NCBI RefSeq assembly: GCF_001677475.2
Contig: NZ_CP015229.1
From: Escherichia coli
GTDB taxonomy: Bacteria > Pseudomonadota > Gammaproteobacteria > Enterobacterales > Enterobacteriaceae
Length of the DNA: 64,000 nt
Strand: one strand, 5' to 3'
This document shows positions 12,001 to 17,724 of this stretch, piece after piece. The notes beneath the pieces were generated by a model, which was given only the letters and a program-made list of their open reading frames with translations, was not told the DNA's origin and made no database searches. A program made the position numbers and the translations under genes. The number at the start of each line of letters is the position of its first letter. Position 1 is the first letter of the stretch.

Positions 12001-15000
12001 AACTGGAGCGTTGGCGTGCCTGCCAGCGTGATTTCCGGCCTTGCGGACGGCACAGTGACTATCAGCGCCACTGTCACCGACAGCGCAGGCAACAGCAGCA
12101 CGCAGACGCACAACGTGCAGGTGAACACGGCGGCAGTGTCGCTCTCGGTCAGCACCATCAGCGGCGATAACCTTATTAACGCCGCCGAAGCGGGCAGTGC
12201 GCTGACCCTGAGCGGCACGGGTACTAATTTTGCGACAGGCACGGTGGTGACCGTGTTGCTTAACGGCAAAGGCTACAGCGCTACCATTCAGAGCAACGGG
12301 AGCTGGAGCGTGAACGTGCCGGCGGCAGACGTTGCGGCGCTTGCCGATGGCACCAGCTATACGGTTAGCGCCTCCGCTCAGGACAGCGCCGGAAACAGCG
12401 CCACGGCCTCGCGCAGCGTGGCGGTGGATCTCACCGCGCCGGTTATCAACATTAATACCGTTTCGACGGACGACCGACTCAACGCCGCCGAACAGCAGCA
12501 GCCGTTAACCCTTAACGGCTCGACCAGCGCGGAAGTAGGGCAGACGGTCACCGTGACCTTTGGCGGCAAAACCTATACCGCCACGGTTGCCGCCAATGGC
12601 ACCTGGGCGCTTAACGTGCCTGCGGCGGATCTTGCCGCGCTCGGGCAGGGCGCGCAGACCATTACCGCCAGCGTGAACGATCGCGCCGGTAACCCCGGTC
12701 AAACCACGCACGCCCTGACCGTCGATACCGTTGCGCCAACGGTCACCATCGCCACCGTGGCGGGCGACGATATTATCAACAACGTCGAGCAGCTTGCCGG
12801 GCAGATCATCAGCGGCACCACTACCGCCGAAGTGGGTCAGACGGTCACTGTCACCTTTAACGGTCAGAGCTGGACCGCAACGGTCGGCAGCGGCGGAAGC
12901 TGGTCGGTGTTTATTCCGGCGCAGCAGTTTGCCGGATTAAGCGACGGCAGCTACACCATCAGCGCGTCGGTCAGCGATCAGGCCGGAAACCCCGGCAGCG
13001 CCAGCCGTGGCGTCACGTTGAACGGCGACGTCCCCACCGTCACCATCAACACCTTTGCGGGCGATGATGTGGTGAATGCGGCGGAACATGGCTCGTCGCT
13101 GGTGATCAGCGGCACCACCACCGCACCAGTCGGGCAGACGCTGACCCTGACCTTAAACGGCAAAACCTACACCACCACAGTACAGACCGGCGGTAGCTGG
13201 AGCTACACCCTCGGCAGCGCCGATGTCACCGCGCTGGCGGACGGCAACGCCTACGTGATTAACGCCTCGGTGAGCAACGCTATCGGCAATACCGGCAGCA
13301 GCAATCACACCATTACCGTCGATCTCAGCGCCCCGGCGATGGGCATTAATATCGATTCCCTGCAAGCCGACACCGGTCTTAGCGCCAGCGACTTTATCAC
13401 CAGCGTTAGTCCGGTGGTGGTCAACGGCTCGCTCACCGCCGCGCTTGCCAGTAACGAGACGGCGCAAATCAGTATCGACGGCGGCGTAACCTGGACCACG
13501 CTCACCGTTACCGGCACGACCTGGCGCTATAACGACAGCCGCACGCTGACCGATGGCAACTATCTCTATCAGGTGCGGGTGATTGACGCAGCGGGCAACG
13601 TCGGTGCCACCGACAGCCAGAATGTGGTGATCGACACTACCGCGCCAGATCCAGCAGTGAAAACCATCGCCATCAGCGCGATCACCACCGATACTGGATT
13701 GATTACTAACGATTTTGTCACCAGCGACACGACGCTTGCGGTGAGCGGCACGCTGGGCGCGGCGCTTTCTGCCGGTGAGTTCGCGCAAATCAGCATCGAC
13801 GGCGGCACCACCTGGCAGAATCTTTCGGTAAGCGGCTTAACCTGGACATATCTTGACGGGCGCACGCTGAGCGACGGCAACTACAACTATCAGGTGCGGG
13901 TGATCGACACCGCCGGAAATATCGGCGCGACCGCCAGCCAGATAGTCACTGTGGACACCACCGCGCCGCTGGCGAGCAAAACCATCGTCATTGCGGGCAT
14001 CAGCGATGACACCGGGTTAAGCAGCAGCGATTTTGTCACCCGCGACACCACGCTGACCGTGCGCGGCACGCTCGGCGCGACGCTTGCCGCCGATGAACGG
14101 GCGCAAATCAGCCTCGACGGCGGTGTCACCTGGACAACCTTAACCGTTATCGGCACCAGCTGGAGCTATGCCGATGGTCGCACACTGACCGACGGCACCT
14201 GGAACTACACGGTGCGGGTGGTGGATCTGGCGGGGAACATCGGGCAGACGGCGACGCAAAACGTGGTGGTCGATACCACCAGCCCGGAAGCGGCGAAAAG
14301 CATCACCATTACCGGCATCAGCGATGACACCGGAGCCAGCAGCAGCGATTTTATTACCAGCGACACCACGCTTACCGTGCGCGGCGTGCTGGGGGCGGCG
14401 CTCGGCGCTAACGAGTTCGCGCAAATCAGTACCGACAACGGCGCAACCTGGGTGAACGTGACCGTCGCCGCAGACGGCCTTAACTGGAGTTACGTTGACG
14501 GGCGTACGCTCACCAACGGCACCACCACCTGGCAGGTGCGGGTAGTCGATCTTGCGGGCAACGTTGGCGCAACCGGCAGCCAGTCGGCGCAGATTGACAC
14601 CGTTAACCCGGCGCAGGTGCTCACCATCGCCAGCATCAGCACCGACACGGGGAGTTCGGCAACTGACTTTATCACCAGTGACACCACGCTCACCCTAACC
14701 GGTTCGCTGGGGGCGGGGCTTGCCAGCGGCGAAGTGGCGCAGATTAGCCTCGACGGCGGCGCGACCTGGATCACGCTCACTACCAACGGCACGCAGTGGA
14801 CCTACACCGACGGCCGCACGCTGACCGACGGCAGCTACGTTTATCAGGTGCGGGTGTTGGATCAGGCGGGGAACATCGGTCCGGTGGTGTCGAAAACGGT
14901 GGTGGTCGATACGATTAACCCTACCGCCACGCCAACCATTGTGTCGTACACTGATGACGTCGGGCAGCGGCAGGGGACATTAAGCAGTTCGCAGGCCACC

Positions 15001-17724: not shown

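Follow-up and report, generated by a model that had tools for sequence, protein, structure and literature searches.

A predicted seven-bladed propeller with six calcium loops forms part of the C-terminal head of the giant RTX adhesin SiiEA of Escherichia coli and is a plausible receptor-binding tip

What kind of structure ends the giant adhesin SiiEA of Escherichia coli, and could this end be the part that meets a receptor? We addressed this question in a stretch of 64,000 nucleotides (nt) of contig NZ_CP015229.1 (assembly GCF_001677475.2), hereafter called the window, on which all positions are given. The gene in question corresponds to a single open reading frame (ORF) at 7..17724 on the plus strand, with 5905 codons in the window and open at the window 5′ end. 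By sequence, it is siiEA, the giant RTX adhesin gene of O-island 28 (OI-28), for which the RefSeq name is 'BapA-related adhesin SiiEA'; this assignment was made because of its synteny with annotated siiEA, to which it is 97% identical at the nucleotide level. The original prediction, made from the letters alone, had placed propeller-like repeats ahead of an RTX/secretion tail within 14900-17724 and had proposed this end of the protein as the receptor-binding tip. Our reading is that the C-terminus of SiiEA forms a calcium-loaded unit, or head, whose propeller would bind a ligand, and we give this statement as a whole a probability of about 0.6. The structural description of the head, taken by itself, is held with high confidence.

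The last 736 amino acids (aa) of the window protein were aligned with 29 homologues (alignment A1), and this alignment was the input to AlphaFold2. The model of the 736-aa cassette has a mean predicted local distance difference test score (pLDDT) of 89.3 and a predicted TM-score (pTM) of 0.91, with disorder limited to the first 16 residues (aa 5170-5185). A pTM of this value over four domains indicates that the head is one packed unit, and it is predicted to be a rigid assembly of a propeller, a beta-sandwich, an RTX beta-roll and an uncleaved secretion signal. The first of these parts, at 15562..16653 (+; aa ~5186-5549, about 364 residues), is modelled as a seven-bladed FG-GAP (integrin-alpha-like) beta-propeller. 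In model numbering (residues ~17-380), 27 strands are arranged in seven four-stranded blades, mostly with a pLDDT above 83; the model does not place the closing (fourth) strand of blade 7 with confidence, and the N-terminal residues fall below 70. The integrin-alpha-like propeller that had been proposed is hence supported by the model as well as by FG-GAP_3 matches in the sequence, and structure prediction, which had been suggested as a way to check it, returned a confident propeller and a defined fold.

Blade 1 has no calcium loop, and blades 2 to 7 carry one Dx[DN]xDG loop each, between their first two strands; integrin-type 'calcium blades' carry the loop in the same A-B hairpin position (PMC3123361). 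All on the plus strand, the loops are DYDRNGTGD(LF) at 15748..15774 (aa 5248, A-B hairpin of blade 2), DKEGDGYLD(FW) at 15907..15933 (aa 5301, blade 3), DLNNDGRID(LV) at 16093..16119 (aa 5363, blade 4), DFDGDGDMD(LF) at 16279..16305 (aa 5425, blade 5), DWNHDGLMD(I) at 16438..16464 (aa 5478, blade 6) and DYDWDGAVD(VL) at 16588..16614 (aa 5528, blade 7). All six calcium-loop repeats quoted in the original prediction, from DYDRNGTGDLF to DYDWDGAVDVL, are thus present (nt 15748-16620), and they follow each other at a spacing of 50-62 aa. The strict pattern D.[DN].[DN]G..D is matched by five of them, the exception being loop 2, DKEGDGYLD, which has a Glu at position 3. The pattern is absent from the rest of the 5905 aa; when the region was shuffled 5000 times, matches averaged 0.011 per shuffle and did not exceed 1. 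Pfam FG-GAP_3 (PF13517, formerly VCBS) matches the region three times, with two loops in each match (E 1.9e-9, 6.4e-8 and 2.3e-7), and there is a weak match to FG-GAP PF01839 (E 0.011). Since Tandem Repeats Finder detected no DNA-level repeats in 14000-17800, the blades appear to be ancient diverged repeats and not recent duplications. From these motifs, we infer that the propeller loops bind Ca2+.

The propeller is followed by a conserved beta-sandwich of ~108 aa (16666..16989, +; aa ~5554-5661), for which a CnaB- or transthyretin-like fold is predicted. It answers to the beta-rich segment of ~100 aa that had been noticed in the sequence, and it is all-beta in two AlphaFold2 models, with a pLDDT of 92-97 within the cassette model and of 84.5 when modelled alone. 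No Pfam family was found for the sandwich in any of 28 homologues and no PDB sequence matched it; a Foldseek search with the sandwich alone gave weak matches (E ~0.01) to CnaB2, pilin, CBM41 and transthyretin folds. The RTX calcium-binding beta-roll (17005..17433, +; aa ~5667-5809), which appears as a short-strand roll in the AlphaFold2 model, starts with the family-wide motif GTGYNDTFF, contains a PF00353 match at aa 5748-5782 (E 1.7e-4) and has profile matches to serralysin and CyaA (E 1e-8 to 3e-16). The type I secretion C-terminal target domain (VCA0849 type), together with the stop codon, is encoded at 17404..17724 (+; TIGR03661, E 1.4e-8, 35.8 bits for a cutoff of 17.6). These matches confirm the RTX/secretion tail. 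The range 14900-17724 does hold the head, but its first ~650 nt (14900 to ~15550, ~200 aa) belong to the immunoglobulin (Ig)-like stalk. The last stalk domains, at 14900..15561 (+), lie outside the propeller, with Pfam Big_13 matches at aa 4912-4969 and 4984-5076; aa ~5077-5185 are Ig-like by sequence and have no significant Pfam match.

We compared the model with known structures. The best Foldseek match in the PDB was mouse CRTAC1 (9etn, E 9e-14), followed by BBSome propellers, the fungal N-acetylglucosamine (GlcNAc) lectins PAL and PVL (E ~1e-7, target-normalised TM-score 0.56), many integrin alpha chains and the Streptomyces lectin UmbA4. As the propeller has only ~364 residues, at least 70 of the Foldseek-aligned residues must fall outside it, with the sandwich as the simplest place for them. 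CRTAC1 (E 3e-8) and integrin alpha-4 (E 3e-4) were found again when a cassette profile was used to search PDB sequences; a profile was required here, the single-sequence PDB search having given CyaA RTX matches only and none for the propeller. Like integrin alpha, PVL and PAL, the head has an FG-GAP propeller of seven blades, several of which have a calcium loop in their first hairpin, and these relatives bind extracellular ligands, which are proteins for the integrins and GlcNAc and sialic acid for PVL and PAL. It differs from them in that six of its seven blades carry a calcium loop, compared to three or four in integrins, in that it has no beta-subunit partner, unlike an integrin, and in that its sequence identity to them is 10-16%. 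Identity to CRTAC1/ASPIC is 15% only and, unlike in CRTAC1, the module is fused to an RTX and type I secretion system (T1SS) tail at the end of an adhesin stalk. CRTAC1 has a C-terminal EGF-like calcium-binding domain. No EGF family is among the Pfam and NCBIfam matches of the window protein, in which the RTX roll and the T1SS signal follow the sandwich. The sandwich has no Pfam match to UnbV_ASPIC (PF07593), and CRTAC1 is absent among the 50 Foldseek matches listed for the sandwich alone.

The nearest propeller analogues of the head therefore bind either sugars (PVL, PAL and UmbA4) or proteins (integrins and CRTAC1). Calcium-blade propellers also include the rhamnogalacturonan lyase of Bacillus subtilis (PMC3123361), and aldos-2-ulose dehydratase is among the fold matches, so that the propeller could be pictured as an enzyme, for example a polysaccharide lyase, carried on a stalk. 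We found no family or structural match to support a lyase or other enzyme and rejected this reading, which we regard as highly improbable.

A ligand-binding role is also suggested by comparison with characterised RTX adhesins. SiiEA resembles MpIBP, FrhA of Vibrio cholerae, AhLap of Aeromonas hydrophila and LapA of Pseudomonas fluorescens, which are giant, type I-secreted proteins with adjacent T1SS genes, and in which a long Ca2+-stiffened Ig-like extender is followed by non-repetitive domains and then by the RTX roll and signal. RTX adhesins carry their ligand-binding domains distally, at the C-terminal end immediately ahead of the RTX roll and signal (PMC12077191). Those of the four proteins named are of the PA14/CBM, peptide-binding, vWFA, ice-binding or RTX-like kinds and often come from 'split' Ig domains; no propeller head is described in the searched literature that pairs RTX adhesins with FG-GAP or beta-propeller terms. 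The N-terminus of SiiEA is a BapA-prefix domain, whereas adhesins of the LapA type have their own retention module. By analogy, it is plausible that the propeller is the most likely receptor-binding tip of SiiEA.

We propose the following course of events. SiiEA would be exported C-terminus first through the adjacent ABC/HlyD/TolC-like system, the genes for which are present at the locus. Outside the cell, millimolar Ca2+ would fill the RTX roll and the six propeller loops, to judge from their motifs, and the head would consequently fold first. With the N-terminal BapA-prefix end presumably staying at the cell surface, the propeller would come to lie at the Ig-like stalk's distal end, and its variable face, opposite or beside the calcium loops, may engage a host or environmental glycan or protein ligand. 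Such an interaction may contribute to the Ca-dependent early adherence reported for OI-28. A 2025 study found that OI-28 is needed for early epithelial adherence and mouse colonisation by enterohaemorrhagic E. coli (EHEC) O157:H7, that RstA activates it and that Ca2+ enhances adherence (PMC12758282); it covers the RTX repeats and Ig-like domains and makes no mention of a propeller, FG-GAP or VCBS. The location of a ligand-binding head at the distal end is compatible with this Ca-enhanced adherence.

We then considered how widely the head occurs. With aa 5170-5665 as the query, 8598 significant representatives were found in an exhaustive profile-free search; in the best 150 of these, 62 full-length matches contain the whole propeller and sandwich module. 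A scan of one genome per species, in which the best 80 of 140 relatives were considered, gave 79 loci with the cassette, in at least 79 species, most of the loci matching essentially the whole 736-aa query. ABC and HlyD homologues lie directly downstream in ~55 of the 79. The cassette is found in Gamma- and Betaproteobacteria and in a few Alphaproteobacteria, with loci in, among others, Escherichia sp. E1V33 (97%), E. whittamii (96%) and Pseudocitrobacter (89%). Carriers also include Cedecea, Enterobacter, Lelliottia, Pluralibacter, Rahnella, Rosenbergiella, Erwinia, Pantoea, Citrobacter and Trabulsiella; further carriers are Acinetobacter, Pseudomonas, Comamonadaceae, Variovorax, Paraburkholderia, Neisseriaceae and others. 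The database names of these proteins are generic (Ig-like domain-containing, VCBS or FG-GAP repeat-containing, T1SS target domain-containing). The closest full-length relative of the head outside Escherichia (P0002, 1860 aa, 65% identity) bears the label Vagococcus sp. WN89Y; because an RTX/T1SS adhesin is unexpected in this Gram-positive genus, the label probably reflects a contaminated or mislabelled assembly. At least two propeller and sandwich modules, some of them internal, are present in three proteins (P0004, P0005 and P0009) and likewise at two loci of the genome scan (L060 and L064); in P0004, of 4108 aa, they lie at 441-940 and 2360-2875. Internal copies of this kind imply that the module can be duplicated apart from the RTX/secretion tail and is not a mere part of the secretion signal.

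This distribution bears on what the ligand might be. Cassettes are widespread in genera that lack a mammalian host and are associated with soil, plants or insects (including Rahnella, Rosenbergiella, Variovorax and Pseudomonas), bacterial surface polymers are ligands of propeller lectins such as UmbA4, and SiiEA has a BapA prefix domain and is called BapA-related by NCBI. The head might, in the manner of Bap, mediate contact between bacteria or with a matrix, through self-association or binding to exopolysaccharide, and not bind a host receptor at all. As the sole phenotype reported for the locus is epithelial adherence and gut colonisation, we consider such a role distinctly improbable.

To describe which parts of the head are conserved, column entropy was scored by structural element over 70 cassette sequences. 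The calcium (A-B) loops have an entropy of 0.90 bits and the strands of 1.73, compared with 1.98, 1.94 and 2.21 bits for the B-C, C-D and D-A loops, respectively. By domain, the values are 1.77 bits for the propeller, 1.18 for the sandwich, 1.07 for the RTX part and 1.18 for the secretion domain. Loop 4, DFDGDGDMD, is the most conserved calcium loop (0.42 bits), D132, G137 and D140 of loop 2 (model numbering) are invariant in 30 homologues, and nearly all insertions in the 70 sequences fall in propeller loops. At the level of sequence, a conserved calcium scaffold and tail with a variable binding surface would be expected to look like this.

The same data can be read in another way, with the head acting mainly as a calcium-driven folding nucleus or cap that emerges first, blocks back-sliding and seeds the folding of the stalk, and with ligand binding taking place elsewhere, for example in the Ig-like domains. 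The six calcium loops and the RTX roll adjoin the secretion signal, the sandwich and RTX parts are almost invariant, nearly all of the 62 modules end 240-250 aa short of the protein C-terminus, and it has been proposed that the folding of adhesins during secretion is initiated by their C-terminal RTX domains (PMC12077191). However, RTX rolls suffice in other substrates, for which a propeller of ~364 aa is unnecessary, the non-calcium loops of the propeller are variable and bear insertions, and a protein can hold several copies of the module, including internal ones. We therefore regard a head that serves mainly in folding as unlikely.

Several observations nevertheless weigh against a ligand-binding propeller at the tip of SiiEA. 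First, the fixed distance of the cassette from the RTX/T1SS tail is equally predicted by a role in folding or secretion. Second, within E. coli, the propeller shows, as far as sequence can tell, ordinary purifying selection and not diversification: 16 of 370 residues differ from the O157 allele, with several of the changes in the blade 4-5 loop, and there are 45 synonymous codon differences. The sandwich is the best conserved part of the head in E. coli, with 0 of 110 aa differing from the O157:H7 allele despite 10 synonymous differences. Third, siiEA of O157:H7 is interrupted (split), with a putative C-terminal product of 5245 aa, and annotated as a pseudogene, whereas the window allele is uninterrupted across its in-window codons, which makes the published OI-28 phenotype harder to transfer to the head. 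Fourth, since the N-terminus lies outside the window, its retention at the cell surface is argued from the allele of another strain.

A fifth point comes from Salmonella. Salmonella BapA, which like SiiE is a T1SS adhesin, has an N-terminal prefix domain in common with full-length SiiEA and is reported to carry three C-terminal 'VCBS' domains (PMC9927257). Deletion of its 'VCBS domains 1-3' left secretion intact and lettuce adhesion unchanged (PMC9927257). If these domains are equivalent to the SiiEA head, secretion and surface display in the deletion strain also argue against a folding cap. Homology between BapA VCBS1-3 and the head is hypothetical, and no cassette was retrieved from Salmonella, either in word-indexed searches listing proteins of up to ~850 aa or among the best 80 of the 140 genome-scan relatives. 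For SiiE, a make-up of 53 BIg domains is described (PMC5466336), and no propeller is reported for it in the literature searched; the structure of its BIg50-52 (2yn3) is matched by stalk Ig domains of longer cassette-bearing homologues (E 1.6e-24).

The stalk that would hold out the head is long. Around 5000 aa of repeats precede the head in the same ORF and are matched by the Big_13, Ca_tandemer and Ig_like_ice models; from the repeat pattern, we estimate well over fifty Ig-like domains. The repeat type switches just 5′ of the head, in a transition zone at ~13300-14900 (+), where ~100-aa 'INTxAGDDxINAAE' repeats give way to about six ~93-aa 'ISxDTGxSxSDFxTxDTTLxxxGxL...RVxDxAGN' repeats. A minus-strand ORF of 347 aa (15088..16131) lies entirely within the GC-rich siiEA coding region and is assumed to be a shadow ORF.

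The genes next to siiEA are those of its putative export system. Directly downstream are genes for a type I secretion ATP-binding cassette (ABC) permease/ATPase of the LssB subfamily (17728..19890, +; TIGR03375, 834.9 bits for a cutoff of 693) and for an HlyD-family periplasmic adaptor (19887..21062, +; TIGR01843, 327.7 bits), and cueR comes next on the 3′ side. The ABC and HlyD genes share 4 nt (19887-19890), as do the HlyD gene and cueR (21059-21062; ATGA). The housekeeping regulator gene cueR thus butts onto the end of the island T1SS operon, an arrangement found likewise in strain LR-28 and in O157. In LR-28, the full-length allele encodes 6819 aa and has a BapA_N prefix domain at its N-terminus, and the 229-aa N-terminal signature of SiiEA (NF047714), which covers a region outside the window, scores 508.7 bits on it. 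A TolC-family gene lies 5′ of siiEA in this strain; upstream of full-length alleles, this gene is beyond the present window. No lapG or lapD gene flanks the siiEA locus.

We also examined the occurrence of the region in E. coli. Of 5426 complete E. coli genomes, 958 (~18%) contain the segment 14900-17724, in all cases as a single chromosomal copy, and across 957 E. coli genomes it has 93.6-97.2% nucleotide identity to the 3′ end of annotated siiEA. The carriers have the same flanks, namely the TolC-like, ABC and HlyD genes and cueR. The head protein is 97% identical to that of Escherichia sp. E1V33 and 96% identical to that of E. whittamii. The core genes at 24000-34000 (qmcA, fetAB, cnoX, ybbO, tesA, ybbA, ybbP) have at most 97.7% identity to any of the 5426 complete genomes. 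From the sequences, the window allele seems to belong to a divergent Escherichia lineage rather than to mainstream E. coli; public protein fragments labelled E. coli (P0159, P0168 and P0209) are 100% identical to it over the aligned part. Between cueR and ybbJ lie a YadA-family gene and a lipoprotein gene, with a low-GC stretch at 22001-24000 (GC 0.435). The former is a 338-aa ORF at 22178-23194 (-), annotated in LR-28 as a YadA-family autotransporter adhesin, and is a second small adhesin gene near siiEA.

Part of this picture was already known. The siiEA gene itself, the FG-GAP repeats, which are found by routine annotation, and the paradigm of distal ligand binding are established, and the module is an ordinary one for this class of proteins. 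In the literature searched, there is no fold-level account of the head (with its seven blades, six of them calcium blades, its conserved sandwich and its rigidity as one unit), no report of its structural kinship to CRTAC1, and no recognition that giant type I-secreted adhesins of many genera commonly end in the 736-aa cassette. A broader proposal, which we put forward tentatively and below even odds, is that the propeller, sandwich, RTX roll and signal together constitute a distinct and widespread class of RTX-adhesin head (at least 79 species), a bacterial counterpart of CRTAC1/ASPIC that would act as a calcium-dependent lectin or receptor binder and, in E. coli, as the receptor-binding element that underlies early OI-28-dependent adherence.

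In summary, the propeller and sandwich (~480 aa, nt 15562-16989) provide a defined construct with which the OI-28 receptor can be approached by glycan arrays, cell binding and inhibitor studies, and constructs of adhesin domains have given anti-adhesion leads for FrhA of V. cholerae and AhLap of Aeromonas. Beyond E. coli, the predicted calcium-blade propeller head would be a common and so far undescribed ending of such adhesins in many Enterobacterales, Pseudomonas, Acinetobacter and Burkholderiales.

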